Shown here: piece after piece, positions 5,484-31,033 of the stretch
Layout of the letters: every line of letters begins with the position of its first letter
Position numbering within the stretch: the first letter of the stretch is position 1
NCBI GenBank assembly: GCA_964640155.1
Contig: CAZXEQ010000002.1
Span: 1 to 32,000, forward strand
Length of the DNA stretch: 32,000 bases
Source: an uncultured bacterium
Lineage (GTDB): Bacteria > Auribacterota > JACPWU01
Direction: 5' to 3'
Notes under the pieces: model-generated
What the model was told of the DNA's origin: nothing
Database searches by the model: none
What the model saw: only the letters and a program-made list of their open reading frames with translations
Program-made: the position numbers and the translations under genes

Positions 5484-5903
5484 TTAAAAAGATGTGATTT
5501 TTGGATTGGGAATACTCGAAATCGGAGGATGATAGAGGATTTGAATCACGTTTCCATCTGGATCTTGGAAATAGAGGGAGCGAGCACCATCCCGATGAGT
5601 TTTAGGCTCTTTTGAAAGAGTAATCCCTTGTTCTTTCAGATATTGAGCCCATTGATCCACATCCTCTGGATTTTTAACCAAAATTCCAAAATGATCTAAA
5701 GGGCTTTCGTCCATTTTCAAAGAAGAAGATACTTGATGAAGAGCCAGATTATCTGAACCTGATGTTAAATAAAGATTATTTACGTCCGGTCGCCATTCAA
5801 TTTTAAAGCCAAGAATGTTCACATAGAAGTCTTCAGCTTTCTGAATATCTTTGACTTTTAAAGCAATATGTCTGATTCCTAAGTTTGGGGGTAAAGTTTT
5901 CAT
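5484..5903 (-). CDS. VOC (glyoxalase/bleomycin-resistance/dioxygenase) family protein
   Basis: 'IRHIALKVKDIQKAEDFYVNILGF', 'DHFGILV' and 'LYFQDPDGNVIQI' form the paired beta-alpha-beta-beta-beta metal-binding pattern. I prefer the ATG at 5903, which overlaps the upstream stop as ATGA, over the track start at 5930. Confidence 0.8.
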   Translation of the reverse strand: MKTLPPNLGIRHIALKVKDIQKAEDFYVNILGFKIEWRPDVNNLYLTSGSDNLALHQVSSSLKMDESPLDHFGILVKNPEDVDQWAQYLKEQGITLSKEPKTHRDGARSLYFQDPDGNVIQILYHPPISSIPNPKITSF

Positions 5904-7471: not shown

Positions 7472-9139
7472 TTATCGATTTCTTGAAACTTTTTCCAATT
7501 TTCTGGCAAGGAAAAGAAAGAAGATTAAGCACAAAAGAGGTTCAAAATTAATCGGATGAGAATTCCCTGAAACCGGGCCAATGGTCCCACATCCTCCTCC
7601 TCCACCATCTCCTCCCCCTTTAATACTGCTGATGGTACTAAACCAAGTCTGTGCAATAATGCTATTTCCCGTAGCATTGAAATGAACATGGTCTACATAC
7701 AATGATCTAAAATCTGCTCTATCTCGAATAGCATTATAATTCTCCACCAGGCTAATACCTTTTCGCCCAGCCATAGCTCGAATCGCCGCGTTGGTATGTT
7801 TTACCTTTCCACTATGACCATCCAAACGAGGTGTAATGGTTGAAATAATGGGTCTAGTTCCAAAAGAAATAGAGCGATCTACCATTCGTTCTAAATTAAA
7901 TGTGATCGATTCTGGAGAGCGTTCATCACCACAATCGTTGGTCCCTTCCATCAGAAGAAGAAATTCCGCATTTGCACTATTGAGAGCACCGTTAATACGG
8001 TTTAGACCTGAGTTCGTTCTTTCTCCTCCTCGCCCTCGATTAACGACAGAAGAGCCAGGAAATCTACCATCCAGCAAACCTTGCAAATGGGGAGGATAAC
8101 CTCCTTGCGTAATACTATCTCCAAAAGCTAAATAAACATTGGGCTGCCCTGCGGCCCATGCTTCATTGATAGAAACATCAAAAAACTTCTTCAAACTCAA
8201 AAGAAGGCTCCCTGATGAACTTGCTGCAGAATCTCTGAGAAGAAGATGAATTGCACCTTTTTCTTGATTGTTGGTAAACCAAGCCCACTCAGTTCTTGAA
8301 ACACTTTGATTTTTCCAAACATCTAAAAATGTCGATTCAAGAGTCACCGAAGTTTCAACTGGACTAGTCCATGATTGCTCACTCCACTGGCTCAAAAACA
8401 CCTTTCCCCCCTGATAAAAAAGAAGAGCAGGATTTCCATTCTCAACTCTTAAAGAAGGAAACTCCACCGATGAATTTGGATCTTGAAAAAGAGCTATTTC
8501 TTCACCCCACTCTTTTCCATCCCATATTTTTTGAAAAAGTTGATATCCCTGACCATTAAAACCACTCCAAACCGCGCAAACTTTACCATCAAAAGCGAGA
8601 ATCGCAGGATCTATATCAGGACTTGCGTCTGGAAGATTAAGTTTTTCCCATCCAGACCAACCTGTAGATGTTTTTCGAATCCAGTAAATTTCATCATAAG
8701 CTCCTATATCGACTCCTTTTTCTTCGACGCCACTTGCCAAAATCCATGGCAGCCCTGCCTCATCCAATGTAATTGAAACTTGGGAAAAACGAACCCCTTG
8801 AAGATGACCTACTGTTTCTTCAGGTGACCATTCCATCCCATTCCATTTGGATAAAATGATTTCTTTGGCTTCATTTTTTTCTCTGACCCAAACAGCCCAA
8901 ACTTTTCCTTCTTGATCAACAGCGATAGAAGGAGAAGAATCTGGAGCCTGATTGCTTTGATGAAGACGTTCAGGTGTTGACCACTGTCCTGCCTTTTGAT
9001 GACTATAATAAATATCCAATTCTTCCCCTTCTGATCCAGCCCAGACCATCCATGAATCCTTCGGGGTGGCCTCTGCCCACATGTTTGAAGAACTTATCAA
9101 TATAAAAGCACCTATCAATAATCGTAAAAAACCTTTCAT
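7472..9139 (-). CDS. Secreted repeat-domain + SGNH/GDSL hydrolase with a Gly-rich, TM and basic C-terminal tail
   Basis: A signal peptide is present ('MKGFLRLLIGAFILISSSNMWAEA'). About five ~50-aa Trp-rich repeats follow ('P.IAvD..GkvWaVW......I..S.W.G..WS.PE'). All four SGNH blocks are intact: 'LAFGDSITQGG', 'GRGGERT', 'MEGTNDCG' and 'DHVHFNATG' (about nt 7640-8140). The tail reads 'GGGDGGGGGCG...INFEPLLCLIFFLFLARKLEKVSRNR'. Confidence 0.8.
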   Translation of the reverse strand: MKGFLRLLIGAFILISSSNMWAEATPKDSWMVWAGSEGEELDIYYSHQKAGQWSTPERLHQSNQAPDSSPSIAVDQEGKVWAVWVREKNEAKEIILSKWNGMEWSPEETVGHLQGVRFSQVSITLDEAGLPWILASGVEEKGVDIGAYDEIYWIRKTSTGWSGWEKLNLPDASPDIDPAILAFDGKVCAVWSGFNGQGYQLFQKIWDGKEWGEEIALFQDPNSSVEFPSLRVENGNPALLFYQGGKVFLSQWSEQSWTSPVETSVTLESTFLDVWKNQSVSRTEWAWFTNNQEKGAIHLLLRDSAASSSGSLLLSLKKFFDVSINEAWAAGQPNVYLAFGDSITQGGYPPHLQGLLDGRFPGSSVVNRGRGGERTNSGLNRINGALNSANAEFLLLMEGTNDCGDERSPESITFNLERMVDRSISFGTRPIISTITPRLDGHSGKVKHTNAAIRAMAGRKGISLVENYNAIRDRADFRSLYVDHVHFNATGNSIIAQTWFSTISSIKGGGDGGGGGCGTIGPVSGNSHPINFEPLLCLIFFLFLARKLEKVSRNR

Positions 9140-10080
9140 CCTATCTCCTCCTTAATCACATAAATAGATTTTTTCTGAGACTCGTGATACGTTCTGATTT
9201 GTATTTCTGCTAAAAGACCCATAGTAACGAATTGAAACCCCGTAAAAATCAGCAGCACTGCTAAAAGCAGAAGCGGCCGCCCCCCAATTGCTTGATTTAA
9301 GAACAGTCTTACAAAGGCCAGATAAAGACCAATGACGAAGCCTGCACCCCCCGTTAAAATTCCGAATAGACCAAAAATCTGAATGGGTTTTGTTGAATAA
9401 CTTAAAAGAAATTTAACAGTAATGAGATCCAATAGAACTCTGAACGTTCTGGAAATCCCATATTTGGATTTTCCTCGCTTTCGTTCTTGATGGCCGACTT
9501 TGACTTCTGAAACGGTCACCCCCATCCAACTCGCAATGGCAGGCAAAAAGCGATGCATTTCACCATACAATTCCAAATTTTTAGCTACTTCAGCTCGAAA
9601 AGCTTTCAGAGTACACCCATAATCATGGAGTTTTACTTTGGTTGTTAAAGAAATGAGGCCATTGGCAAGCATAGAAGGTAATCTTCGGTTAATAAAAGGA
9701 TCCCTTCGGGGATAGCGCCACCCACTGACAATATCAAAGCCCTCATTCACTTTATCTAATAATTTCCCAATATCGTTGGGATCATTCTGTAAGTCTCCAT
9801 CCAATGTAACAATAATTTTTCCACAACTTAGATCAAAACCTGCTTTCATCGCTGCCGTTTGACCAAAGTTCTTTCGAAATCGAACCAGGCGAATACGAGC
9901 ATCTTGCCCCTTGGCCTGTTTAAGGAACTCCCAGGTTCGATCTGTACTACCATCATCAATGAGAATAATCTCGTAAGAACACCCCAATTTATTTAAAGCC
10001 TCTTGAACACGAGGAATAAGCTCAGGGATATTCTCCTCTTCATTCATGAGAGGAATTACAACTGAAAGATCAAGATTCAA
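9136..10080 (-). CDS. Polyprenyl-phosphate glycosyltransferase, GT2 (GtrB/ArnC/DPM1-like)
   Basis: 'LSVVIPLMNEEENIPEL', 'IILIDDGSTDRT', 'RKNFGQTAAMKAGF' and 'LDGDLQNDPNDI' are followed by two C-terminal TM helices. The start is TTG at 10080, preceded by GGGAG 9 nt upstream. The stop overlaps the SGNH start as ATGA. Confidence 0.85.
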   Translation of the reverse strand: MNLDLSVVIPLMNEEENIPELIPRVQEALNKLGCSYEIILIDDGSTDRTWEFLKQAKGQDARIRLVRFRKNFGQTAAMKAGFDLSCGKIIVTLDGDLQNDPNDIGKLLDKVNEGFDIVSGWRYPRRDPFINRRLPSMLANGLISLTTKVKLHDYGCTLKAFRAEVAKNLELYGEMHRFLPAIASWMGVTVSEVKVGHQERKRGKSKYGISRTFRVLLDLITVKFLLSYSTKPIQIFGLFGILTGGAGFVIGLYLAFVRLFLNQAIGGRPLLLLAVLLIFTGFQFVTMGLLAEIQIRTYHESQKKSIYVIKEEIG

Positions 10081-10239
10081 GGCAAAAAACTCCCTTTTTG
10101 TTAAAAAAACAATCTACAAATTTTAGGTTAAATAGGCACCAGTTTATCATGAAATTCTCTAGATGGATAAAAAAAGATGATGTTTTTAGAAAAAATCGCA
10201 GGAAGGCAAATTTTATATAAAAACCCTTAAAAACATGAA

Positions 10240-10255
10240 AATTCTACATCATAAT
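10240..10255. repeat. Direct repeat copy 1 (AATTCTACATCATAAT)
   Basis: This 16-mer is identical to 10465-10480, and the copies start 225 bp apart. Confidence 0.9.
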
Positions 10256-10299
10256 CGTTCTATTCACATGCAACTGTTACAGTCGAGATGGTTATTCAT

Positions 10300-10434
10300 G
10301 TTCATTAGAGTGTAAGGACCATTGGAGCTCTCAGCCTCGCATGGTACCCCGATGTTTATCGGGGTGAGCGAGAGCTCCTTTGAGTTCATTTGACTCGCAG
10401 GGGCAAATGAACGTGTCCGAACGCTCTGATGAAC
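10300..10434 (+). ncRNA. Candidate structured RNA or mobile-element core (multi-helix junction, class not recognised)
   Basis: The outer helix pairs GTTCATTAGAGTG (10300-10312) with CGCTCTGATGAAC (10422-10434). Next come GGAC (10316-10319)/GTCC (10415-10418), then hairpin GGAGCTCTC (10324-10332)/GAGAGCTCC (10370-10378), which carries the apical CCCCGAT-GTTT-ATCGGGG (10347-10364). A second hairpin pairs GTTCATTTG (10384-10392) with CAAATGAAC (10404-10412). Two positions in the outer helix are G-U pairs on the plus strand but C-A mismatches on the minus strand, which weakly favours a plus-strand transcript. Confidence 0.35.
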
Positions 10435-10464
10435 AATACTTATAGGATAGGTCTGAGGCAGGGC

Positions 10465-10480
10465 AATTCTACATCATAAT
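10465..10480. repeat. Direct repeat copy 2 (AATTCTACATCATAAT), covering the last three codons and stop of the 1006-aa gene
   Basis: On the minus strand it reads ATT ATG ATG TAG AATT, which is ...I M M stop of the ORF 10469..13489. Confidence 0.9.
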
Positions 10481-13400
10481 TTCGAGATTTCCAACCTCAG
10501 CACGGTTATCCTTGTACTTTAAATTGGATTGAAGAATATTCCAACGCCTGCTACCCACCTCATACAAACCTATCTTGATCTGATAATTTTCTAAAGGGAT
10601 ATTCGTTGGAATAATCATTTTATGCTCTTTGATAAGGAACTGCCTATCCAAACCAAAGGAATGAACGTCTTTGCCTAAAAGCTTATGATCTGCCTGAAAA
10701 AATTCATTTTTGCTTTCAAAATGCAAAAAGACTGCAAGCTTGTCAGAAGCACGTTTATGATTTAATCTCCATAAAGATCTTATCCGTATTTCTTGTCCCC
10801 TCTTGCCAACACCAAGCGTAGATAAAGGCCAAACGATAGAGGGAACTTCCTCTATCTCTTGAGAATCCAACAACTGAAATCCTAATAATTGTGTCTCGTT
10901 CTCAAACTCAATCCAGCTTTTATCTTTCGAAGGAACGCTCTCAATCCAAAGCCTGCGCCGATCCTGTCTAGATTCATGAAATCTTCCTAATCTTTTTAAA
11001 GATCTAATTTTTCCTCGTCGGGCCTCTTCATGATAAGGATTATACAAAAGAGCTTTTTCATAATGAACAAGGGCGCTTTGAAAGTCCCTGGACAAAGATT
11101 TCTGCTTGGCTATATTTGCATGATTTAAACTACGTTTCGAATTAATATGAAGTAATCCAAATCCAATCCAAAAAAATCCCTTGCTATTCCCCAGAAAAGA
11201 CTGATGAGCAGAGGTCCATTCCTTAAAAGAAAATACTGCATGTCGTCCAAAAATTTTTTTCTCAAGTTCAAAACCAAACTCATGAATCATTCTAGAAAAA
11301 TAATTTTCATCTTCAATTGGAATAACAAAAGCTGTTTTAGGGCCAAAGTGAACAATCGGAGAAGGAATTCCTGCCATTCTGTAATGGGAATCTGTATAGG
11401 AAGGATATGTTTTTATTTTCCCCATTGTTTTATCTTTAATTTTTGCAGAAATCCATCGATCTGCATAGACAAAGTCAAAGGGATGGCTCATAAGATAATT
11501 CATCAAATCATCTATTTTCTCCATTGAAGACATTTCAAGGCCTAAAGGCTCATATATAAAGATTTCATTAATCCCCCAAAAAGAGCGATGTTCGCTTTTT
11601 TGAGAAAACCGGACGTATCTAGCCTGTACAGGAGAAAATCGAATTTCTAATCGATAAAGTTGAGCCCACGTGTAGAGGCGTGGTCCTGACCAATAGTAGC
11701 TTAAAACATTTTGTGAATGATCCAACTGGGCAATCTTTTCCCAATGAACTTGATCATGCGAGACTTCAACTTTAATATTTGAAGGATAAAACCGATGGTG
11801 TCCAGGTTGATGAAAAAGGCGAATCATTCCTAAAGAATGGGTTTGTCCTAAATCTAACTGAAAAGATTCTTCTTCTTTCGCTAAATTTTCACAAGTCCAT
11901 ACTGTATCTGATGAACGATCAAAGGCATGACCCCTCATTCTTGCATTTTCTGTCGTGGAAACCGTCCATTGATCAGTCAATATTTGTCGGTAAAGGGGCA
12001 AAGGTTCTTTGAAATCATAATAAATATGGAATCCTTCAACTTCTTTCAGACTGGCCGATCCTCCTAAATATTTAAGAGCTTCTTCAACCTCACGACTTGA
12101 ATACTTAAAGATAAAAGCCGGGTTGTCAGAATTCTCTACTTCATTCTGATAAGGATGATGCTTTTCCCCTTGAGGAGAGCAAAGGATGACCTTTTCATTC
12201 GATGCAAAGGTCATTCTGGGACCTAAAGAATATTCTACAATCCCCCTATTGATCCCCAACTTTAAAACAGTATCGGTTAGCTTTCTTACAGTCGCTTCTT
12301 TCACGCTTTCTATAGAATTTGATAAAACGTATCTCTGAAGGTTAGGAATCTGTAAGCCCATGAAGCTTGCCAATAAGAGGATCGGTGCCCATCTAGCCTT
12401 CCCTCCCAACCAGGCAAGAAAAACTCCCACAGTCATAGGGATGAGAGAAAATAAGGGAAGAAGATATCTTACAATACCCCGAAGACCCAATTGCGAACTA
12501 CTATAGATAAGTATGAAGAAAAGAAAAAATAGAAGAAGAATGGATGAGCCAGAAATATCCTTTCTGTAAAAACTGCCTAATTTAAGAAAATCCTTCCCTG
12601 CCTTTCCCAGAAAAAAAAGAAATGAAATGAGATAAAAAATAAGGATGCTCCAGAATAAAACGGAGAAATTTTTGTCCAGGTAAACTGCATCCAAAAAGGA
12701 TGGAATATCTTTTAGAAAGAGCTGAGAAAGCCCTTCTTTTAAATGATCAAATCTAAATCCTCCTGTAAAACCTCCTAATCCTTTACCATGTATCACATGA
12801 AAAATCCAAAAAGGCAAACTTCCAATAACAAAGCCTAGGAGACTCAAGATTCCATTCAAAAAAAATATTTTTGCTTTCTGTGTTAGAAGTATAAATACGG
12901 CTGCTGTAAGGATATAATAAATGGTTAAAGGACTTGTCCACCAGGAAAACCCTGCAGCCCAACCAACAAGAAAATATAGCAAGGTTCTCAATCTCTCAGA
13001 TTTTGTTTTTAAAAGATATACCGCAAGCAAAAGAACAAGACTTCCAAAAGTCAATGTCTCGATATATCCTCCCTGAGGATTAAGACCATAGTCCAACAGA
13101 AATCGCGGAGGGACAATACACCACGCAAGCGTCCATAGACCTACTTTCTTATTAAACAAGTTTGAACTCAATAAATACGTCACCAACATAAAGAGAGCAA
13201 AAAATGTTAATGGAGCGTAAGCCAATACCTTCGTGGAGATGCCAAACCAGTCAAAATAGACTGCACTCAGGAAAGATTCGATTGTTCCAAACCAATTTTG
13301 CCCATAGAAAAAAAAGGGAAACTCCCCTTTTAAAAAAATATTTCTTCCCATTAATGCAACCGTGTAATGATCTGGGCTAGACGTAACAGGACGTAATTCT

Positions 13401-13489
13401 AATAGAAGAAGGCGAAACAAAACGGCAATAAAAACTAAAATCAACGCAGTTATATCCAACCGATCTACATAAATTTTTTTAATTTTCAC
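10469..13489 (-). CDS. GT-C (ArnT/PMT-like, polyprenyl-phosphate-sugar dependent) membrane glycosyltransferase with internal discoidin (F5/8 type C) domain - paralogue 1
   Basis: The 1006-aa protein has an N-terminal ~400-aa polytopic region carrying 'GEFPFFFYGQNWFGTIES'. The discoidin-like block runs 'FDRSSDTVWTC...FQLDLGQTHSLGMIRLFH...VEVSHDQVHWEKI...ARYVRFSQ...INEIFIYE' (about nt 11545-11930). A TPR-like 'ALVHYEKALLYNPYHEEA' follows. The C-terminal module 'LAVFLHF...FQADHKLL...YQIKIGLYE' is common in GT39-type proteins. The start is GTG at 13489. Confidence 0.75.
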   Translation of the reverse strand: MKIKKIYVDRLDITALILVFIAVLFRLLLLELRPVTSSPDHYTVALMGRNIFLKGEFPFFFYGQNWFGTIESFLSAVYFDWFGISTKVLAYAPLTFFALFMLVTYLLSSNLFNKKVGLWTLAWCIVPPRFLLDYGLNPQGGYIETLTFGSLVLLLAVYLLKTKSERLRTLLYFLVGWAAGFSWWTSPLTIYYILTAAVFILLTQKAKIFFLNGILSLLGFVIGSLPFWIFHVIHGKGLGGFTGGFRFDHLKEGLSQLFLKDIPSFLDAVYLDKNFSVLFWSILIFYLISFLFFLGKAGKDFLKLGSFYRKDISGSSILLLFFLFFILIYSSSQLGLRGIVRYLLPLFSLIPMTVGVFLAWLGGKARWAPILLLASFMGLQIPNLQRYVLSNSIESVKEATVRKLTDTVLKLGINRGIVEYSLGPRMTFASNEKVILCSPQGEKHHPYQNEVENSDNPAFIFKYSSREVEEALKYLGGSASLKEVEGFHIYYDFKEPLPLYRQILTDQWTVSTTENARMRGHAFDRSSDTVWTCENLAKEEESFQLDLGQTHSLGMIRLFHQPGHHRFYPSNIKVEVSHDQVHWEKIAQLDHSQNVLSYYWSGPRLYTWAQLYRLEIRFSPVQARYVRFSQKSEHRSFWGINEIFIYEPLGLEMSSMEKIDDLMNYLMSHPFDFVYADRWISAKIKDKTMGKIKTYPSYTDSHYRMAGIPSPIVHFGPKTAFVIPIEDENYFSRMIHEFGFELEKKIFGRHAVFSFKEWTSAHQSFLGNSKGFFWIGFGLLHINSKRSLNHANIAKQKSLSRDFQSALVHYEKALLYNPYHEEARRGKIRSLKRLGRFHESRQDRRRLWIESVPSKDKSWIEFENETQLLGFQLLDSQEIEEVPSIVWPLSTLGVGKRGQEIRIRSLWRLNHKRASDKLAVFLHFESKNEFFQADHKLLGKDVHSFGLDRQFLIKEHKMIIPTNIPLENYQIKIGLYEVGSRRWNILQSNLKYKDNRAEVGNLEIMM

Positions 13490-13526
13490 AAGGAATTATC
13501 CAAAGCCAAATATTTAATTTTGAGCA

Positions 13527-14402
13527 TTAGATATAAATCAATGTCAAACAAATTACAAGCCACAAAAAAATATCTAGTTGAAGCGCAAAATCACAATATA
13601 AAACCTGCGTAGGATTATCCCCCATCTCTTTTTGATGAATCAGATAAAGATAACGGAAAATACCATAGATCACAAAAGGGACTGTAAAAATAAGTCGATC
13701 TGTTCCAAACCTCATCTGAACATCTCTAGAAACCGTGTAGAATGCGTACGTAACCACTGTCGCGCCTGTAATCACAGAAATCAAAGAGTCAATAAAGGTG
13801 ATACTATATTCTGAAAGTACGTGACGATGTTGTGATGCTACATGCTTTAAGATGACCATTTCTTGACGACGCTTACAAAGGGCCAAAAATAAGGCTAAGA
13901 GAAACGTGCAGAGCAAAAGCCAATTTGAAATATTCACATAAATCACAACACCTCCCGCAACAGCTCGTAACACAAAACCCATTGCAAGAAGCATCACATC
14001 TAATATCACAACACGTTTGAGACCAAAAGAATAAATCAATTGAATAAACCCATAACCAAGTAAAACAAACAAAGCACCTTTCCCAAGACCTAATCCCATA
14101 AGAAAAGAACCCATCAACAGAAGTCCCGAAAGAATACGTGCCGTTCTTTTAGAAACAGTTCCAGTAGCCAAAGGGCGAAAGCGTTTGGAAGGATGTTGTT
14201 GATCTTCTTTTAAATCCAAGAAATCATTCAAAATATAACAGGCACTGGATATCGCACAAAACGCAAAAAAAACAATGCAGACCCGAACAAAAGAAATTTG
14301 ATCAAAAAGCTGCTCTGAAAAAATTAATGCTGCAAAAACTAGCAGGTTTTTTATCCAGTGCTTAGGGCGTATGAGTTGAAACAAAGCTTTAAGATTCATC
14401 AT
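13527..14402 (-). CDS. UbiA-family polyprenyl-phosphate phosphoribosyltransferase (decaprenyl-phosphate 5-phosphoribosyltransferase/Rv3806c-like)
   Basis: The membrane protein has about 8-9 TM helices. It carries 'NDFLDLKEDQQHPSKRFRPLATG', which matches the NDxxDxxxD-x-HPxKxxRP[IL]AxG signature I recall for the DPPR-synthase subgroup. I prefer the ATG at 14402 (MMNLKALFQLIRPKHWIKN), which has AGGAAA 8 nt upstream. The track start at 14510 would overlap the upstream gene. Confidence 0.75.
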   Translation of the reverse strand: MMNLKALFQLIRPKHWIKNLLVFAALIFSEQLFDQISFVRVCIVFFAFCAISSACYILNDFLDLKEDQQHPSKRFRPLATGTVSKRTARILSGLLLMGSFLMGLGLGKGALFVLLGYGFIQLIYSFGLKRVVILDVMLLAMGFVLRAVAGGVVIYVNISNWLLLCTFLLALFLALCKRRQEMVILKHVASQHRHVLSEYSITFIDSLISVITGATVVTYAFYTVSRDVQMRFGTDRLIFTVPFVIYGIFRYLYLIHQKEMGDNPTQVLYCDFALQLDIFLWLVICLTLIYI

Positions 14403-14412
14403 CGCATGTTTC

Positions 14413-17352
14413 CTATTTCTTAACGCATATTTTGCCAATAATAGCTGCATTGTCTTTCTGTTCAAGAGATGTTTTTTTAATTTTAACGCGCTTACCAGTT
14501 CTAAGATCAAAAAGTCCTAATCTAATTTCGTATTCTCCTTCTGGCATATTTTCAGGGACTCTCAAGACCTCTTTTTCCCTAAAAACTTCTCCATCTAAAA
14601 CAGGCCACACATTTAAATTCCATTTTAAGAATTGATGATCCCCTTGAAAGATTTTAGAATTCTGAACAACATGAACAAAAACTCCCAGGCGACTCTTAGT
14701 ATCCTCCTTCAAAGACCAATAATATTGAGCCTGTGTTGGTTCTCCCGTAGATAGTTGATTGTTCCCAAATCGATATCCTAAAAATTTTATACCATTTGAG
14801 AATTCTACTTCGGCCTTGTTGAGGGGTTGTGTCTGGCGTTTCAAAATTTTTTCATGTTTAAACACTTTATCTTTTCTTCCCTGATTTTCTAAAAACTTAA
14901 TAAAGTAACGTCTGGTCGTTTGATTATTCTTATATTCTTGAAGAGATTTTTTATAAAAATGCTCAGCTTCTTTGCTTTTGCCCTCTGTTTCTTTTTTCTG
15001 AGCTAAACTTCTAAAATACTCACTTCTTTGCTTAGTATTGACCTTCACAACACCCAATCCCATCCACCACCAGCCAGGATCATCTCTCATCTGTTCTTCT
15101 TTCTCTTCCCATTGATCAAAATAAAATAACACCCACCTTTCAAAGTCTTCACGTTTAAGGAAACAACCTTCCTGACGCATCATTTTCTGAAATAAATCTG
15201 CATTATCTTTTTCCAAGACAAATCCCGTTTTGGACTCCCATTTAACAATTCTGGGGTTAAAATAGACTCTTTTTCTAGGAGAAGCAGATGTAAAAGGCTC
15301 TACTGTAGAGATGGTATTTGCAAACCGTTTTCGAATTTGTGCATTCATCCAACGATCTGAATAAATTCTGTTCAAACCTAAAGTTTTGATTCTTCTTAAT
15401 ACTTCTTCCTCTCCTTGACGACCGAGAGCAGAGGAAGAAATCCATTCATAGAGATAAGCCTCTGTAATAATCCACTCGGATCTGTTAGAGTTTTCAAATT
15501 GCCATATACGAATGTATCGAGCTTTCACAGGACCTAATCTCAATTCCCATCGATAGGCCCATTCCCAAGGATAAATCCTAGGCCCACTCCAATAAAAAAA
15601 TCCCCCTTCTGTTTGAGGACCTACCTTCAACCAAGTCTTTCCATCTTGACTCACTTCAGCTAAAGAAATATATGGAAAGCCCGCATGATACCACCCTTTA
15701 TTCCATAAACGCAGCATTCCTAAGGTATAGTCCTTTCCCAAATCAAACTGAACCCACATCCCAGATTTCTTAAGAGCTCCAGATGTCCAAGCCGTTTCCA
15801 TATTCCGATCAAGCACATTTTTCATTTCATCGCCATAATCAGAAGCTGTCGCCTTTATTTTAATCGGATTGATTTGCCTATACTGCGCCTGAGGCTCCAC
15901 AAAGTTATAAGTAATCTGATACTCTCCTACTTGATCTGTTTGACAAGTGCCACCAATCTGTTTTAGTGCTTTTTCTACTTCAGGATTTGAAATAAAAGCA
16001 GGCCGATCTGTTTCATTTAGCAAATGCATATAGGGATCATATCGCCCATTTTGGCGAGTAGCACAAATCACATCTTCATTTGATAAAAAGTTTATTTCCA
16101 TGCACCCCAAAGCATAATCAGCATAAATATATTGTAAGTTCTTAGACTTAAGATAATCAATCAAGCTCATCAGTTGAGTTGTTCTCACACATGCAGCAGG
16201 AACGTCTTTTGTTACCAGCTCCCAAATAAAAAAACCTTGGGCAAATAAATAGAGAATATAAAGAGCCAGCATTATTTTCTTCAAAAATTGTTTGGCCGCT
16301 AGAACCACAAAAGAGCATGCAATGGGGAAAAAGGAATAAAGCGCTATGACATAATGATCTTTCGGACGTCTTGCTTGAAAACTGGTAGAAAAAATGAGAA
16401 CTGTCGCCAAAAGAAGAAACACCAGGAGATAGGCTTCAGAATGTCTTGCCTTTATAAAATAATAAATCGTTACAAAAATTAAAAATGCCGCTACCACCCA
16501 AACAGCCCAGTTTCCAAATCTCTCATATCGAAATACATCCATAAGCTTGGGAGCTGCTGCAAAAAAAAAGCCATGCAACCCATTGAATAATCTATTCCAA
16601 TGGAACCCCTGTCCCATATTCAAAATTGAAGAGAAAGGATCTTTCGCATAATAATAAAAAAAAGGCCATCCACCTACAAAAAAAGAAGGGAGGGCAAACA
16701 AAAGTCCATATTTGATAGCCCTCATTCTTTCATAAAGGACCAGATACACCATAATAGGTAAAAAATAATACATCAACAAAGGACTTGCCCACCAAGCAAG
16801 ACCTCCTGTCACTCCTAGGGAAAGATAAAGCAATTTTTTATTTTTTTTAGAATCACTTTTCCGAATTCGAATGGCAATCCAAAGCACCAAACTTCCAAGG
16901 GTTGGGGTTTCAAGATAATGCGTATGTGGGACCAAACTATATTTCGTTAAAAGTAAAGGGGCGCAAAAGCACCATAAAACGGCTCCCACCCCTACCTTTT
17001 CATTGTGCGCATCTCTGCCGATCAGATAGGTGAGCATGCAAAAAAGAAAAAAAAAGAAAAGTGTTACCAAACGCAAGGGCCATGCATAAACTCCAAAAAA
17101 ATAAAAAGAAACAGCGTAAAGCAAAGATTCCAAACCCCCAAACCAGTTTTGTCCCATAAAGAAAAAAGGAAATTCCCCTCTTTCAAGGGCATGCTTCCCC
17201 ATCAAAGCTGTAACAGCAAGATCTGAGTCTACAAAACCTGGGAAAAGCTTTAAGGTAAAGGGACATTGCAATCCAATGACAAAACGAATAGCAACAGCCA
17301 GAACAATGATGAGAAGAGAGATATATTCATATTTTGAAGTTTTATACTTCAT
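14413..17352 (-). CDS. GT-C membrane glycosyltransferase with internal discoidin domain - paralogue 2
   Basis: It has the same architecture as paralogue 1 and long identical blocks with paralogue 3 ('GEFPFFFMGQNWFGGLES', 'VPHTHYLETPTLGSLVLW', 'PQAQYRQI', 'VLDRNMETAWTS', 'LGMLRLWN', 'YWSGPRIYPWEW', 'LRLGPVKARYIRI'). The discoidin block lies at about nt 15445-15830. I prefer the ATG at 17352 (AAGGA 7 nt upstream) to the TTG at 17367. Confidence 0.75.
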   Translation of the reverse strand: MKYKTSKYEYISLLIIVLAVAIRFVIGLQCPFTLKLFPGFVDSDLAVTALMGKHALERGEFPFFFMGQNWFGGLESLLYAVSFYFFGVYAWPLRLVTLFFFFLFCMLTYLIGRDAHNEKVGVGAVLWCFCAPLLLTKYSLVPHTHYLETPTLGSLVLWIAIRIRKSDSKKNKKLLYLSLGVTGGLAWWASPLLMYYFLPIMVYLVLYERMRAIKYGLLFALPSFFVGGWPFFYYYAKDPFSSILNMGQGFHWNRLFNGLHGFFFAAAPKLMDVFRYERFGNWAVWVVAAFLIFVTIYYFIKARHSEAYLLVFLLLATVLIFSTSFQARRPKDHYVIALYSFFPIACSFVVLAAKQFLKKIMLALYILYLFAQGFFIWELVTKDVPAACVRTTQLMSLIDYLKSKNLQYIYADYALGCMEINFLSNEDVICATRQNGRYDPYMHLLNETDRPAFISNPEVEKALKQIGGTCQTDQVGEYQITYNFVEPQAQYRQINPIKIKATASDYGDEMKNVLDRNMETAWTSGALKKSGMWVQFDLGKDYTLGMLRLWNKGWYHAGFPYISLAEVSQDGKTWLKVGPQTEGGFFYWSGPRIYPWEWAYRWELRLGPVKARYIRIWQFENSNRSEWIITEAYLYEWISSSALGRQGEEEVLRRIKTLGLNRIYSDRWMNAQIRKRFANTISTVEPFTSASPRKRVYFNPRIVKWESKTGFVLEKDNADLFQKMMRQEGCFLKREDFERWVLFYFDQWEEKEEQMRDDPGWWWMGLGVVKVNTKQRSEYFRSLAQKKETEGKSKEAEHFYKKSLQEYKNNQTTRRYFIKFLENQGRKDKVFKHEKILKRQTQPLNKAEVEFSNGIKFLGYRFGNNQLSTGEPTQAQYYWSLKEDTKSRLGVFVHVVQNSKIFQGDHQFLKWNLNVWPVLDGEVFREKEVLRVPENMPEGEYEIRLGLFDLRTGKRVKIKKTSLEQKDNAAIIGKICVKK

Positions 17353-17373
17353 CCTGATATCCTTCAAGAAATA

Positions 17374-20300
17374 TTATTCTCTAATTTTGATGGAGCCAAT
17401 AAAAACACCTTTATGTTCTACTTTGAGAGAAGTATTCTTTATTTTTCGGCGTTTACCATTTTCTAAATTAAAAAGACCTAAGTAAATTTGATATTCTCCG
17501 GCAGGAGTATCTACTGGTATTTGAATAAATTCTTTCTGTCGAAAAACTTCTCCTTCCACGCAAGGCCATATATAAAGATGCCGATTCAAAAAACTGTGAT
17601 CTCCTTGAAATAATTTTCCTTGGCCCTTAACATGAACAAAAACAGCCATGTTATTTCCAGGATTTTCTTTAAGTCTCCAATAATACTGAATAGCAATTTT
17701 TTGACCTGCCTTGACACCTGTAACAGAAGCAGAAACAGGGTAAAGGGTGTACCCTAAAAACTCTATCCCCCTTTCAAATTCAACAAAAGCGGAATAATGC
17801 GGTTTTATCCGCTTTAAAAGGTGGCTTTCTTCTTCACGAGCTTCTTTTTCTTGCCCCCTTCTTTTTAAAACGTTTATTTTCCCTTCCCTGGCCTTCACTT
17901 GATTCGGATAACTTTTCAAAGCCTTTTGATAATATTTGAGAGCTTTCTCAAAATGTCCCTCTTCTTCAAATTTGCTTGCCTTCATTCTTAATTGCTCGCT
18001 ATAAGCCTTATTATTAACACCCACAACTCCCAGTCCCATCCAATACCAGCCTAAGTTTGATTTTAACTTTTCTTCATTTTCACTCCACTTTGGAAAATAA
18101 AATAAAACCCAACGAGAAAAATTTTTTCTTGCAAGATGAATCTCTTGCTTTTCAATTGTCTTTTCAAATTCATCTGCATCGGCATCTTCCAAAATAAAAC
18201 CTATCTTTGGACCCCATGTCACCAATCGACCTGGTAGACGAACAGTATCTTTTTTATCGGTAAGACTAAAAGGTTCTATTGTTTGAATGGTTCCATTACT
18301 TATCTTTCTAATCTGAGAACTCATCCAGCGATCAGCATAAACTTTTTCTAATTTTAAAGCTTTCACAGTTGAAAAAAGTTCTTGTTCCCCCGAGGCAGCA
18401 AAACTTTCTTCCTTTATCTGCTCATAAAAATATACTTCGCTGATACGCCAGTCCAAACGACTTGAAGAATCATGCTGTACAACACGCACAAATCTGGCTT
18501 CAACAGGCCCTAGACGAAGCTCCTGACGATAAGACCATTCCCAGGGATAAATTCTTGGTCCACTCCAGTAATAGAAATCACAAGGTTTGGGCTGAAGAAC
18601 TTGCGTCCATTGATGTCCATCCAAACTTACTTCTACACTTAAATGGGCAGAAAAATAAGGATGCAATTCTCCCCGATTCCATAACCTGAGCATACCCAAA
18701 GAACAGGGTCTACCTAAATCAAACTGAATCCACATCCCCACTTGTCTAGCAATGACACTGCTCCAACTCGATTCCATATTACGATCCAAAACCTTTTTTG
18801 CTTGTCTAGATTCATGAGAAGAAGCCGTCTTAATCTTCTCAGGTGATATCTGACGATACTGAGCCTGAGGCTCTCGAAAATTATAATAGACATGGAATCG
18901 ACCCTCCTGATAACTTTGACACTGTCCCCCAATCATCCCAAAAATATTCTCAAAAACACCGGATCTATTTTCAATGAAAGCAGGATAAGGACTTTCATCT
19001 AAAAGAAGTTCGTAAGGTCGATACCTCTCTTGAGTAGGTGTCGCGCAAATCACTTCTTCTTTCGCCATAAATGTAATATCTGCAGCCCCAGAAGAAGCAT
19101 CAAATCGATAATCCATATACGCATGCTGAATCCCGTGCTTTTTTAGAAAATCGATAAGCTTTAGCTTTTCCACAGCTTCTGCTTGATAACCAGGAACTTC
19201 CTTAGATAACCAATCCCAAACAAAAAAACTTTGCCCAGCGCAATAAAACAAGGCCAATGCAACCGTTAACCATCTCCAATGCTTACGTACTTGCCATACA
19301 GCATAACCAAACACAATAGGGACAAGAGAATAAAGAGCAATCACATAGCGAGGTCTAAAACGTCGAATGGCATCATGGCTAGAACAACATACGACAACAA
19401 TTCCTAAGAGGAGAAACATCAAAATCCCACGAGCATGGCTCAATGGCAATATTTTTTTGCGAAGTCCGGCCGGTAAAAATGGGAGATCTTTTAAAAAAGA
19501 ATAAAAAAGATAAAAAAAATCTTTCATATTTGAAGACAAGAAGCGTAAAAAAATATACACGTAAAATAAAGCAATCGCTATAAAAGCCCACATTCCAAAG
19601 TGCTTATACTTGGGAATATCTAAAAGCTCTGGCCCTGTTGCTAATAATAAGTTTTTAAAACCTACAGGGAAATAGACAAAAGAAAATTTGCCTCCCATTC
19701 CTAAAACACTAGAATAAGGATCCATGGCATAATAAATAAAATAAGGAGCTCCTCCGATAAAAAAAGCAGGTAAACTCAAGAGAATTCCCCATTTCACCGC
19801 TTCCCAACGTAATCTGAAGAACATGAAACCCGCAATACCCAAAAGATAATAAATCATCATCGGGCTCACCCACCATCCCAGCCCACCAAAAAACCCTAAC
19901 ACAAAATATAGAAATCTTCGTACCTTCATTGAAGTGGAGAGAGTAAGTCTAATCGCAAGCCAAATAATCAAACTTCCCAACACCGGGGTTTCCAAATAAT
20001 GCGTATGTGGAACTACGCTCAATTGAGTTAAATAAACTGGTGCAAACACGCACCAAAGAAGTGCTACCAGTGCAACACCATCATTAAAAAGATCTCTGGC
20101 AATGAGAAAAGTCAAAATACAAAAAAAAGCAAACAGAAAAAGAGGGGCAACACGCATCGCCCACGGAGTGACGCCAAAAATCCAGAAGGCAACCCCATGA
20201 AGCATCGCCTCTAGCCCCCCAAACCAATTCTGCCCCCAAAAGAAAAATGGAAACTCTCCCAACTCCAATGCATGCTTTGACATTAACCCAATAATGCCTA

Positions 20301-20448
20301 AGTTATTGACAACGCATGTGTGTGCTAAATAAGTACTATCGGGACCTAATAAAGAAATAAAAAATCTAATGCTGACTGCAATGATCAGAAAGAGAAAGAA
20401 AAAGAGAAGAGTAAGCGGCTTTTCAAATTTTAAAGATAATATTTTCAT
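17374..20448 (-). CDS. GT-C membrane glycosyltransferase with internal discoidin domain - paralogue 3
   Basis: The architecture matches the other two ('GEFPFFFWGQNWFGGLEA', 'VPHTHYLETPVLGSLIIW', 'VLDRNMESSWSS', 'LGMLRLWN', 'YWSGPRIYPWEW', 'LRLGPVEARFVRV'). The discoidin block lies at about nt 18420-18800. I prefer the ATG at 20448 (MKILSLKFEKPL...), because the track start at 20526 would overlap the upstream gene by 59 nt. Confidence 0.75.
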   Translation of the reverse strand: MKILSLKFEKPLTLLFFFLFLIIAVSIRFFISLLGPDSTYLAHTCVVNNLGIIGLMSKHALELGEFPFFFWGQNWFGGLEAMLHGVAFWIFGVTPWAMRVAPLFLFAFFCILTFLIARDLFNDGVALVALLWCVFAPVYLTQLSVVPHTHYLETPVLGSLIIWLAIRLTLSTSMKVRRFLYFVLGFFGGLGWWVSPMMIYYLLGIAGFMFFRLRWEAVKWGILLSLPAFFIGGAPYFIYYAMDPYSSVLGMGGKFSFVYFPVGFKNLLLATGPELLDIPKYKHFGMWAFIAIALFYVYIFLRFLSSNMKDFFYLFYSFLKDLPFLPAGLRKKILPLSHARGILMFLLLGIVVVCCSSHDAIRRFRPRYVIALYSLVPIVFGYAVWQVRKHWRWLTVALALFYCAGQSFFVWDWLSKEVPGYQAEAVEKLKLIDFLKKHGIQHAYMDYRFDASSGAADITFMAKEEVICATPTQERYRPYELLLDESPYPAFIENRSGVFENIFGMIGGQCQSYQEGRFHVYYNFREPQAQYRQISPEKIKTASSHESRQAKKVLDRNMESSWSSVIARQVGMWIQFDLGRPCSLGMLRLWNRGELHPYFSAHLSVEVSLDGHQWTQVLQPKPCDFYYWSGPRIYPWEWSYRQELRLGPVEARFVRVVQHDSSSRLDWRISEVYFYEQIKEESFAASGEQELFSTVKALKLEKVYADRWMSSQIRKISNGTIQTIEPFSLTDKKDTVRLPGRLVTWGPKIGFILEDADADEFEKTIEKQEIHLARKNFSRWVLFYFPKWSENEEKLKSNLGWYWMGLGVVGVNNKAYSEQLRMKASKFEEEGHFEKALKYYQKALKSYPNQVKAREGKINVLKRRGQEKEAREEESHLLKRIKPHYSAFVEFERGIEFLGYTLYPVSASVTGVKAGQKIAIQYYWRLKENPGNNMAVFVHVKGQGKLFQGDHSFLNRHLYIWPCVEGEVFRQKEFIQIPVDTPAGEYQIYLGLFNLENGKRRKIKNTSLKVEHKGVFIGSIKIRE

Positions 20449-20467
20449 GATATATATTTCTTCTATC

Positions 20468-21451
20468 TCAAGAAATTTTAGAGAAAGTTTCTTTTTCTCT
20501 CCCCAAAAAATAGAATACTCCCCCAATTAAATTACCAATGGTTGTTGTTACTCTGCTAGCCAAAGCCAAAAGGAGGGCATCTGTTTTACTTAATCCTACC
20601 AGAGGGAAAAGAAGTACATAAAGACCCTCCAAGATACCAATAGCATCTACCGAAATAGGGATTCTAGCTATAAAATAAATAAAAGGGATCACCATAAAAT
20701 AATTTAAAGCAGAGCCTGGCAATTCAAAAGCTCTCGCCAAAACAAAAGTAGAAATAAAAGGAACAAACTGTTCAAAAAAAGAGAGAATAAAAAAAGCCAA
20801 CATGGCTTTGGGATAGTATCTAAATTGTTGATAGGAAGAAACAACATTGCCTAGCTTTTTAAAAAATTTTCCTTTAAATCTATCTGATTTTGAGCGAGGC
20901 AAATAATAAAGAGAGCCCACAAAAAAAACACTTACCGTGATTAAAAAGAATAAAATAAAATAAAAATATTTCCAATAAATCTCTGAGAAATTTTGTATAA
21001 GCAAAAATGAACAAATACACACCAACAACAACATCGCAAATAGGCCTAAGACTTTTTCAACAACAATACTGGCTGCAATTTTTTCTCTTTCTCCTTCTCG
21101 CACAGAGAAACTCATGAGACGCATCACATCGGACCCCACACTGGTAGGAAGTACCAGTCCCAATAAAGAAGCCATAAAATAAGAGCGTATACAACTCAAG
21201 AAAGAAGCCCGAATACTTTGAGCCCTGAGAAGGATCATCCATTTTGCTCCCATCCAGATGCGATCGATAAGAACAATTGTTATGGCAAGTAGTATAAAAC
21301 TTAGATGAGCTCGAGATAAAACACGAGAAAACTCTTGATAATCAACAAGCGTCAAAAGGTATATGAGAAGGCAAAGCCCAACAGCCCAACGGAAGATGGA
21401 GGATCTATGAATTGACATGGGATATAGGATATAGTTTTTGATGTCAAGCAT
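20468..21451 (-). CDS. UPF0104/LPG-synthase-TM (MprF flippase-domain-like) membrane protein
   Basis: The 327-aa protein has about 8 TM helices. 'LRAQSIRASFLSCIRSYFMASLLGLVLPTSVGSDVMRL' resembles the family's conserved 'lP...G.d..R' loop. An alternative start exists at 21418 (MSIHRS...). Confidence 0.6.
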   Translation of the reverse strand: MLDIKNYILYPMSIHRSSIFRWAVGLCLLIYLLTLVDYQEFSRVLSRAHLSFILLAITIVLIDRIWMGAKWMILLRAQSIRASFLSCIRSYFMASLLGLVLPTSVGSDVMRLMSFSVREGEREKIAASIVVEKVLGLFAMLLLVCICSFLLIQNFSEIYWKYFYFILFFLITVSVFFVGSLYYLPRSKSDRFKGKFFKKLGNVVSSYQQFRYYPKAMLAFFILSFFEQFVPFISTFVLARAFELPGSALNYFMVIPFIYFIARIPISVDAIGILEGLYVLLFPLVGLSKTDALLLALASRVTTTIGNLIGGVFYFLGREKETFSKIS

Positions 21452-21528: not shown

Positions 21529-22221
21529 TCAATTATCTATTTCCACCCACTGAACCGCATGACGTACCAGTTCAGTCGCATTTTCTAATTTCATTTTCTG
21601 TTTGATATGTTCTCGATAGGTTTCAACTGTTTTTATGCTCAGATGCAATTCTTTCGCAATCTGTCGCGTGCCACAGCCTTTCCCAATCAATTGAAACACT
21701 TCTAACTCTCGATCACTTAAAAGATCCAGAGGAGAAGTTCCTTTTTCAGAACCTCCATCCACACATTTTTCGAGCATCCTTGCTGCAATCTTTTCGCTGA
21801 CGTAAATTTCGCCTTTCAAAACTTTACGAATAGCAATTAAAACTTTTCCTGTTGCTTCTTGCTTCATAATATAGCCCCTCGCTCCCGCTCTCAGCACACG
21901 CTCTGCATAGAGAGACTCATCATGCATCGAAAGCACAAGAATAGGTAACTTTACATACCGTGTTTTAATGTTTTTAATCAACTCAATCCCATTCATGCCT
22001 TTCAAAGAAATATCCACAATCACAACAGAAGGCTTTAACTTTTCAATAGCATCCAAGCCCTGATAAGCGTCTTCCACGCTCCCACAAACCGTAAGATCCT
22101 CTTCCTGATTAATAAGTTGAGAAATGCCTTCTCTTAGAATAGGATGATCATCTACAATCAAAACTTTGGCAATCAAACTCATTTTAGATCTTTCTTCTTT
22201 ATTCTGTTTAATGGTTTTCAT
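21529..22221 (-). CDS. Response regulator, NarL/FixJ family (REC + LuxR-type HTH)
   Basis: 'VLIVDDHPILREG', 'VVIVDISLKGMNGIE' and 'ILVLSMHDE' form the receiver domain. 'LSDRELEVFQLIGKGCGTRQIAKELHLSIKTVETYREHIKQKM' is the LuxR-type HTH. The ATG overlaps the kinase stop as ATGA. Confidence 0.9.
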   Translation of the reverse strand: MKTIKQNKEERSKMSLIAKVLIVDDHPILREGISQLINQEEDLTVCGSVEDAYQGLDAIEKLKPSVVIVDISLKGMNGIELIKNIKTRYVKLPILVLSMHDESLYAERVLRAGARGYIMKQEATGKVLIAIRKVLKGEIYVSEKIAARMLEKCVDGGSEKGTSPLDLLSDRELEVFQLIGKGCGTRQIAKELHLSIKTVETYREHIKQKMKLENATELVRHAVQWVEIDN

Positions 22222-24238: not shown

Positions 24239-24273
24239 AGAAATATGTGGTTCGATAAATTAAAACTAATTTT

Positions 24274-26163: not shown

Positions 26164-26235
26164 GGGCGATATGATAGCAATTGCCCTTATGGGAATCAAG
26201 CTTTCAAGGGTAAATCCCTTAATACTTAAAGAGAT

Positions 26236-31005: not shown

Positions 31006-31033
31006 ACCTTTGTTCCTTTTTTATTAACATATT

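Follow-up and report, generated by a model that had tools for sequence, protein, structure and literature searches.

Introduction

The closest published logic to the locus described here is the three-component pentofuranose system of Citrobacter. In Citrobacter youngae O1/O2, ORF15 is a polyprenyl-phosphate 5-phosphoribosyltransferase (PPPRS), ORF14 a MATE flippase, and ORF12 a GT-C glycosyltransferase (GT136) with a C-terminal carbohydrate-binding module (CBM) (Kelly et al. 2024, PMC11127046). The combination of a UbiA-type synthase, a flippase and a GT-C enzyme with a CBM has been demonstrated experimentally and described as widespread, and 'more elaborate' loci with several GT-Cs have already been mentioned (PMC11127046). 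Here we describe a block of genes at positions 7472-21451 of a 32,000-nucleotide stretch of DNA (hereafter the window) from an uncultured bacterium of the phylum Auribacterota (GenBank assembly GCA_964640155.1, contig CAZXEQ010000002.1, positions 1 to 32,000). As in Citrobacter, a UbiA homologue of the decaprenyl-phosphate phosphoribosyltransferase (DPPRS) type adjoins GT-C-like proteins with periplasmic CBMs, a candidate flippase is encoded alongside, and the GT-C proteins have ArnT as their closest solved relative.

Two further sets of enzymes invite comparison. The mycobacterial arabinan machinery (Rv3806c DPPRS, Rv3807c, DprE1/E2, EmbC/A/B and AftA-D) likewise combines a DPPRS enzyme with tandem GT-C paralogues that bear carbohydrate-binding modules, and its donor, as we propose for the block, is made inside and used outside the cytoplasm. 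The ArnC-ArnE/F-ArnT pathway (lipid A aminoarabinose) and the GtrA-GtrB-GtrC pathway (O-antigen glucosylation) run in the order donor synthase, flippase, GT-C; the GT2 protein of the block is nearest to ArnC/GtrB and its GT-C proteins are nearest to ArnT. The initial annotation of the window, made from the sequence alone, saw Emb/Aft-like logic outside its usual context. Given that the combination found in Citrobacter is already widespread (PMC11127046), this phrase overstates the novelty of the locus; the general logic that it described, namely lipid-linked donors made on the cytoplasmic side and used outside by GT-Cs with carbohydrate-binding modules, stands.

We consider it rather likely that the block encodes a periplasmic system for decorating (or building) a glycan, which draws on two polyprenyl-monophosphate sugar donors. 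The results presented below concern fold, family assignment, sequence motifs and synteny; from them we infer its substrates, flipping step, acceptor and division of labour as follows. On the cytoplasmic face, the UbiA homologue would move ribofuranose-5-phosphate from phosphoribosyl pyrophosphate (PRPP) onto polyprenyl phosphate, and a phosphatase whose gene lies elsewhere would then convert this product into polyprenyl-phosphate-ribofuranose. The ArnC/GtrB-like GT2 would charge polyprenyl phosphate with a second sugar, taken from a nucleotide sugar. The donors would cross the membrane, probably via a UPF0104 protein, and outside it the ArnT-like GT-C paralogues would pass the sugars to an envelope glycan, held by the CBM32 and C-terminal beta-sandwich domains of the paralogues. 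A secreted SGNH enzyme probably adds an acyl group to the same glycan or removes one from it.

Three paralogues combine a predicted GT-C domain with CBM32

The paralogues P1 (10469..13489, 1006 aa), P2 (14413..17352, 979 aa, its start being the ATG that agrees with the orthologue P0002) and P3 (17374..20448, 1024 aa) are co-directional on the minus strand and can be aligned along their entire length. Identity is 29-32% between P1 and either of the others, and 44% between P2 and P3. F5_F8_type_C (discoidin) scores above the Pfam cut-off in each of them and is followed by weak TPR matches, and all three are laid out alike: a polytopic N-terminus leads into a discoidin/CBM32 domain, a short stretch of TPR follows, and a beta-sandwich forms the C-terminus. 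The initial annotation had proposed one architecture for three co-directional proteins of these lengths, and the full-length alignment, the discoidin matches and the modelled beta-sandwich bear it out. Not described at first are an alpha/beta domain and some four TPR-like helices, which separate the discoidin domain from the beta-sandwich.

A hydropathy scan places about 10-13 hydrophobic segments in residues 1-400 of the paralogues, and the N-terminal 400-500 residues of P1-P3 receive no Pfam or NCBIfam call. P2 was modelled with AlphaFold2 at a mean predicted local distance difference test (pLDDT) score of 78, with values of 80-95 through the membrane part. In the model, a GT-C domain with a periplasmic alpha/beta portion (aa 1-495) is followed by CBM32 (aa 500-640), a further alpha/beta domain (645-770), the TPR-like helices (773-841) and the beta-sandwich (845-979). 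Foldseek ranks ArnT (5f15/5ezm) first among solved structures (E 2.6e-7, ~560 aligned columns; TM-score 0.58-0.60 normalised on ArnT), and after it archaeal AglB, eukaryotic STT3 and mycobacterial AftD, the last at rank 22. The structural neighbours of the middle domain are CBM32 modules that bind galactose or N-acetylglucosamine (GlcNAc). A separate model of the last 340 residues (pLDDT 84) again gives the alpha/beta domain, the TPR-like helices and the beta-sandwich. The sandwich has only generic matches (NPC2/ML, the Wzt carbohydrate-binding domain, RbmA and Ig; E around 1e-5), and therefore no specific ligand can be assigned to it.

Word-indexed homologue searches returned 8-11 proteins even with a 59-sequence profile, which made the AlphaFold2 alignments shallow (13 and 8 rows). 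An exhaustive search with the N-terminal profile found 7540 representatives at E<=1e-3, of which 1812 reached E<=1e-30. PMT_2 is matched by 44 of 59 sampled relatives (best E 2.3e-13) and F5_F8_type_C by 39, and one relative has a TMEM260-like match. The lack of a GT-C fold or profile match in the N-termini was one of three findings named beforehand as refuting the initial interpretation, none of which was obtained. With ArnT as the first fold match and PMT_2 in most of the sampled relatives, the model and the profiles, two independent lines, place the N-termini in the GT-C superfamily, where they are ArnT/PMT_2-like. The same N-terminal family includes the widespread, uncharacterised PMT_2 GT-Cs with F5/8 type C domains from Anaerolineae, Thermodesulfobacteriota, Nitrospirota and Ratteibacteria, which share a loop-1 motif with the paralogues and in which CBM32 is frequent (39/59) and the genes are often tandem (15/80 loci). 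The window proteins differ from these relatives in being divergent and below the PMT_2 cut-off, and most of the relatives are without a UbiA neighbour.

PMT_2 is a model named after protein mannosyltransferases and, together with the TMEM260-like relative and the TPR-like helices, it raises the question of whether the paralogues are PMT/TMTC-like protein O-glycosyltransferases that act on secreted or surface proteins, with the TPR helices and the beta-sandwich recognising the protein substrates. A DPPRS-derived donor is used on a protein in the pilin arabinosylation of Pseudomonas (PMC11127046). However, every paralogue carries a CBM32/discoidin domain whose structural neighbours bind galactose or GlcNAc, and the fold matches of the C-terminal sandwich include the Wzt carbohydrate-binding domain beside generic Ig/ML folds. 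Furthermore, the TPR-like helices number only about four, and the genes nearby, with an amidotransferase-like AsnB of the XrtA type, a PgaC/cellulose-synthase-like GT2 and a WcaF-like acetyltransferase, are of a kind associated with polysaccharides. We hold protein glycosylation to be a rather improbable function for the paralogues, and return to the two-donor glycan system.

Putative active-site residues differ among the paralogues

In GT-C enzymes, the catalytic Asp sits right after the first transmembrane helix (TM1) (PMC11127046). Of 102 family members, 101 have an Asp a short way past TM1 (D44 in P2); it precedes the sequence G-E-F-P-x-F-F-Y-G-Q, and the resulting loop-1 motif, D-x(14-15)-G-E-F-P-x-F-F-Y-G-Q, is common to the wider family. 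P1 keeps the Asp (D40). P3 has Asn (N49) at this site, as do its orthologue P0004 from the sister genome and P0011, whereas Asp is retained in P0003 and P0006, which are P3-like but more distant. Later in the membrane domain lies an Arg-Tyr pair (Arg 82% and Tyr 88% conserved), which is RY in P1 (Arg341) and P3, and HY in P2 (His333; positions 333/334) and its orthologue P0002. Both features have counterparts in Citrobacter ORF12, in which an Asp also stands right after TM1 and the later pair is R349/Y350.

Owing to these differences at the Asp and Arg sites, P1, P2 and P3 are not equivalent. P1 and P2 have the appearance of catalytic enzymes. For P3, which has lost the conserved Asp and may be no conventional transferase, the role of an altered or non-catalytic partner is likelier. 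The initial annotation had spoken of three specialised transferases; three paralogues there are, but that description is weakened by the Asn of P3 in place of a near-invariant Asp, and by the fact that P1 is missing from its slot in three related loci (L003, L163 and L164; see below).

The UbiA homologue belongs with DPPR synthases

Wedged between P2 and P1 with flanking gaps of 10-37 bp is a gene (13527..14402, minus strand) for a 291-aa UbiA-family polyprenyl-phosphate 5-phosphoribosyltransferase homologue of the DPPRS/PPPRS type. The protein scores 305.3 bits against NF008977 (decaprenyl-phosphate phosphoribosyltransferase; cut-off 234) and 211.6 bits against NF008978 (cut-off 207), versus 37 bits for haem O synthase and 34.6 bits for UbiA proper. 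Its sole PDB sequence matches are the Mycobacterium tuberculosis DPPRS structures 8j8j and 8j8k (E 7e-35). The N-D-x-x-D-x-x-x-D motif of cytoplasmic loop II (YILNDFLDLKEDQQHPSKRFRP) aligns with YLVNDVRDVEADREHPTKRFRP of 8j8j, and the K-R-x-x-E motif of loop IV (CKRRQEM) with GKRYAEL; the HPxKRxRPxAxG motif is aligned with 8j8j as well. Residues of the loop II and loop IV motifs have been named essential (PMC11127046). By profile score and motif, the UbiA homologue belongs with the DPPR synthases and not with the quinone or haem prenyltransferases, in agreement with the Rv3806c-type signature first noticed in it.

The protein has no extra domain and, unlike the Citrobacter system, no fused HAD phosphatase; a phosphatase or epimerase is also missing nearby. 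Among the 20 window open reading frames (ORFs) scanned, there is no HAD, PAP2, MATE or GtrA domain, and no FAD_binding_4/ALO or short-chain dehydrogenase gene of the kind that makes up a DprE1/E2-type epimerase. Because the window holds neither a DprE1/E2 epimerase nor a 5-phosphatase, ribofuranose is likelier than arabinofuranose, and the UbiA-derived sugar is most likely ribofuranose. For the same reason, arabinan-like chemistry is not indicated, and the system, which the initial annotation took to be possibly self-contained, is not so, since the window genes scanned include neither a DprE1/E2-type epimerase nor a phosphoribose 5-phosphatase.

Tandem GT-C paralogues with carbohydrate-binding modules that adjoin a DPPRS homologue nevertheless call to mind an Emb/Aft-like polymerase system, in which the paralogues would successively build a pentofuranose homopolymer (arabinan- or ribofuranan-like). 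AftD is among the fold matches of P2, and arrays of the family reach five paralogues (L009). Against such a polymerase speak the lack of DprE1/E2-like genes among the window genes scanned and of any Arabinose_trans/GT53 signature, the fold, which is nearest to ArnT, a single-sugar transferase, and the paralogues themselves, of which one is without the conserved Asp and a second has no fixed place. Moreover, a second, unrelated donor synthase (the GT2) is fixed in the block, which suits two-sugar decoration better than a homopolymer. The mycobacterial machinery differs further in its PAP2 phosphatase, which the window lacks, in the type of CBM (CBM32 in the block) and in the flippase (SMR-type Rv3789, versus the UPF0104 candidate). 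Its host differs as well: as had been supposed, the block comes from an AT-rich, non-actinobacterial organism, the window having 34-41% G+C and the closest locus being from Candidatus Auribacterota. Since its defining features (DprE1/E2 and GT53) are not found, we rejected the filing of the block under Emb/Aft; the transferases are ArnT/PMT_2-like instead, and successive homopolymer synthesis is in our judgement very unlikely.

A candidate second donor synthase, a candidate flippase and a secreted SGNH protein

The GT2 gene (9136..10080, minus strand) encodes an ArnC/GtrB/DPM1-type protein with a Glycos_transf_2 match at 2.3e-33. Among solved structures it is nearest to ArnC (9bhc, E 7e-58), GtrB (5eke, 4e-38) and the dolichyl-phosphate mannose synthase DPMS (5mlz, 4e-24), which upholds the GtrB/ArnC/DPM1-like GT2 of the initial annotation. 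It aligns with 9bhc from end to end (5-311), with the TLDGDLQ/TLDADLQ (DXD) motif and a C-terminal hydrophobic pair in register, and two transmembrane helices lie at its C-terminus. These features make it a candidate polyprenyl-phosphate sugar synthase. At 221 bits against an ArnC equivalog cut-off of 529, it does not qualify as an orthologue of ArnC, and the block differs from the Arn system also in having no ArnA/B/D genes. Compared with both the Arn and the Gtr systems, its GT-Cs have large periplasmic extensions that ArnT and GtrC lack, its candidate flippase is from another family, and a PRPP-dependent synthase is added.

At the other end of the block lies the gene for a UPF0104/LPG_synthase_TM (PplT, AglD2/YbhN-type) membrane protein (20468..21451, minus strand). 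It scores 116.9 bits against LPG_synthase_TM (PF03706; cut-off 33.4) and 44.2 bits against the TIGR00374 flippase-like domain (cut-off 43.2). For the UPF0104 family, lipid flipping is predicted, not proven (bioRxiv 10.1101/2022.03.11.483950; GpgF, PMC12713373), and it is by way of this literature that the protein becomes a candidate flippase for lipid-linked sugars. The flippase-like protein noted upstream of the paralogues is thus upheld as a family member, with scores above both cut-offs, but its link to the block is seen in this genome only.

The last gene of the block (7472..9139, minus strand), not part of the initial description, encodes a secreted SGNH/GDSL hydrolase (Lipase_GDSL_2 at 1.4e-21) with an N-terminal BNR/GH43-like propeller region, and is conserved in the related loci described below. 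The C-terminal ~55 aa of this protein (7475-7639) consist of a Gly-rich GGGDGGGGGCG stretch, FEP, a hydrophobic helix and a basic ARKLEKVSRNR end. In this the tail resembles sorting signals of the PEP-CTERM or GlyGly-CTERM type, although the protein has no NCBIfam match.

Conservation of the gene neighbourhood

The closest genome locus (L003) is from a Candidatus Auribacterota metagenome-assembled genome (MAG) of a sister species, Auribacterota being a phylum of the PVC group, and its proteins share 76-95% identity with the block's. It holds, in this order, P3-like and P2-like genes, UbiA (82%), a 532-aa membrane protein that is unrelated to P1 but fills its slot, GT2 (95%), SGNH (79%) and DUF2079 (79%). 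The succession of GT-C, UbiA, GT2 and SGNH is retained in two independent metagenome contigs: L163 has a GT-C gene, UbiA (64%), GT2 (77%) and SGNH (45%), and L164 has two GT-C genes, UbiA (61%), GT2 (77%), SGNH (51%) and the N-terminus of a third GT-C paralogue. In a distant locus (L002, 32% G+C), the components are present but rearranged; here we find several GT-C/discoidin genes (24-26%), SGNH (31%), a short GT2, a PAS-GerE regulator, a DPPRS-like UbiA (47%) and a second, divergent UbiA. The neighbourhood thus recurs in related genomes, in favour of the initial annotation, and its conserved core is two tandem GT-C/CBM32 genes with UbiA, GT2 and SGNH, whereas the third GT-C varies in position. 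The P1 position is lineage-specific, being empty in L163 and L164 and occupied by the 532-aa protein in L003, and P1 is not a fixed component of the block.

Some details of these loci stand on their own. The 532-aa protein of L003 (7060-8658) is polytopic and has no Pfam or NCBIfam match. It was considered as a further GT-C and rejected, since profile comparison with the GT-C N-terminal alignment gave nothing. In L002, the DPPRS-like UbiA gene adjoins genes for an acylphosphatase and a YdjM-type membrane hydrolase (15305-16977), which could be candidates for the missing 5-phosphate removal, and the second, divergent UbiA gene (373-1263) directly follows another GT-C gene.

Across the wider GT-C family, a GT2 gene lies within 10 kb in 12 of 80 genome loci, being directly adjacent in L004 and L022, and UbiA is found only in the Auribacterota-like loci and L002. 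ArnT and ArnC are, moreover, the top structural match of the GT-C and the top match of the GT2, respectively. The block could accordingly be read as nothing more than an ArnC/ArnT- or GtrB/GtrC-type pair, in which the GT-Cs use the GT2 product (a hexose or amino sugar) and UbiA serves another pathway or acceptor. However, a DPPRS-like UbiA clusters with GT-C and GT2 genes in L003, L163, L164, L002 (orthologue identity 47-82% across these four) and the window. In the first three it lies directly between the GT-C genes and the GT2, and in the window it is tightly wedged between two paralogues. This retention of UbiA in the cluster argues that it belongs to the same pathway as the GT-Cs, and we think it improbable that the pair works without it.

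A number of observations weigh against the two-donor glycan system that we favour. Concerning the GT-C proteins, PMT_2 (PF13231; cut-off 26.1) is matched below its cut-off by P3 (17.2 bits, E 0.0063) and P2 (10.5 bits) and not at all by P1, and searches of the paralogue profiles against PDB sequences gave TPR and discoidin matches only and no solved GT-C, so that the GT-C call rests on the fold match together with the transitive PMT_2 matches. We know of no enzymology for any member of this family, and the pairing of donors with paralogues cannot be read from sequence. Concerning the donors, neither a 5-phosphatase nor an epimerase is encoded among the window genes scanned. Concerning the gene neighbourhood, the UPF0104 gene is beside the block in this genome only; none lies within 10 kb in L002, the contigs of L003, L163, L164 and L002 either end before the UPF0104 position or are without the gene, and a UPF0104 gene is found in only 1 other of the 80 wider-family loci. 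UbiA occurs near the wider GT-C family in 1 of the 80 genome loci (L003), plus L002 from a separate look-up. Conversely, 80 metagenome loci of UbiA relatives (37-49% identity) yielded 2 weak matches to the GT-C family of the block.

The neighbours of these UbiA relatives are heterogeneous (FAD_binding_4 in 5/97, adh_short in 3/97). We have thus rejected both a general linkage of DPPRS-like UbiA with the GT-C family, on the 2 weak matches in 80 metagenome loci, and a general UbiA or UPF0104 neighbourhood for the wider GT-C family, on the 80-locus genome scan. With the GT-C family near-absent beside UbiA relatives, the GT-C/UbiA pairing is specific to a small clade. At least two paralogues occur in 15 of the 80 wider-family loci. 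Tandem arrays without a UbiA neighbour contain up to five GT-C/discoidin paralogues, as in a Nitrospiria MAG (L009, 5847-16064), and occur also in L053, L060 and L069; paralogue expansion is therefore a habit of the family, independent of the DPPRS link.

Locus layout and surrounding genes

The minus strand carries every gene from 5484 to 32000. From the UPF0104 gene through P1, the intergenic spacing is about 10-40 bp (19 bp from the UPF0104 stop to the P3 start), and the GT2 and SGNH genes overlap by 4 bp. The tight packing first described holds from the UPF0104 gene to P1, after which a 388-bp gap (10081-10468) precedes the GT2 gene. Owing to this gap, the block is likely to form two transcription units. 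Just 3' of the P1 stop and inside the gap lies a strongly structured element (10300..10450, minus strand) of nested hairpins, with a minimum free energy of -58.7 kcal/mol (z -5.86 vs shuffles) and no U-tract after it. An Rfam scan of the window assigned it to no family; the window contains it once, and none of the other loci retrieved has it. It could serve to stabilise or process the transcript, or be a scar left when P1 was inserted.

Upstream of the block are a PAS sensor histidine kinase gene (22218..23453, minus strand; HisKA_3/HATPase_c in Pfam) and a NarL/LuxR-type response regulator gene (21529..22221, minus strand; Response_reg and GerE in Pfam), which overlap by 4 bp and whose products are probably regulators of block expression. 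Upstream of this two-component pair, the stretch 23510-27291 encodes a class I methyltransferase, a paralogue of AsnB and a WcaF-like hexapeptide acetyltransferase whose N-terminus has a hydrophobic segment. For the AsnB paralogue, the nearest model is the amidotransferase of the XrtA/PEP-CTERM system (574 bits, short of its cut-off of 817), and as a set the three genes suggest an exosortase-type exopolysaccharide context. A PgaC/cellulose-synthase-like GT2 is also among the surrounding genes and, with the WcaF-like and AsnB genes, fits a surface-polysaccharide region.

On the other side of the block, the gene at 5900..7393 (minus strand) encodes a DUF2079 polytopic membrane protein (Pfam, 100.1 bits). 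This protein was likewise tried as a further GT-C and rejected, as it has no profile similarity to the GT-C N-terminal alignment. Farther away, at 27437-31942, a DUF4956 membrane protein is encoded between two CotH kinase-like proteins, one of which has Laminin_G_3 and atrophied Ig domains. Finally, a 483-aa ORF at 2493-3944 on the plus strand has an ATP-cone and a partial NrdD match (profile positions 278-412 of 562), and may be a short or unusual form of the anaerobic ribonucleotide reductase NrdD.

Implications

From the Citrobacter precedent, the block differs in its GT-C family, its flippase candidate, the absence of a phosphatase or epimerase, its fixed GT2 and SGNH genes, and its Asp-less paralogue. 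The GT-Cs are PMT_2-like with CBM32, TPR and beta-sandwich domains, and ORF12, set beside them by description, belongs to GT136. A UPF0104 protein takes the place of MATE, there are two to three GT-C paralogues, and the host belongs to an uncultivated PVC-group phylum.

To our knowledge, UPF0104/PplT proteins have so far been tied to phospholipids only. A more specific joint reading would have the block make a ribofuranose-containing surface glycan from two lipid-linked donors, with UPF0104/PplT flipping polyprenyl-phosphate sugars and with the P3 type, whose change from Asp to Asn is retained in at least three lineages, as a dead GT-C that forms a hetero-oligomer with P2, reminiscent of EmbA/EmbB, and binds glycan there. 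We think it unlikely that all of these parts hold together.

Taken together, the locus points to a lipid-linked pentofuranose donor that depends on PRPP and occurs outside Actinobacteria and Proteobacteria, and brings to light a large uncharacterised GT-C family (thousands of representatives) in which an ArnT-like core is paired with CBM32. It also offers a candidate role for UPF0104 proteins, the flipping of polyprenyl-phosphate sugars, and in P3 a likely pseudo-enzyme paralogue. If the proposed biochemistry is true, the 'three-component' concept of 2024 would be extended to a two-donor, multi-GT-C format and new enzymes would become available for glycoengineering, without current understanding being overturned. 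We know of nothing reported on the envelope glycans of Auribacterota, and of little for most uncultivated PVC-group bacteria; for the former, the block provides a concrete, testable pathway.

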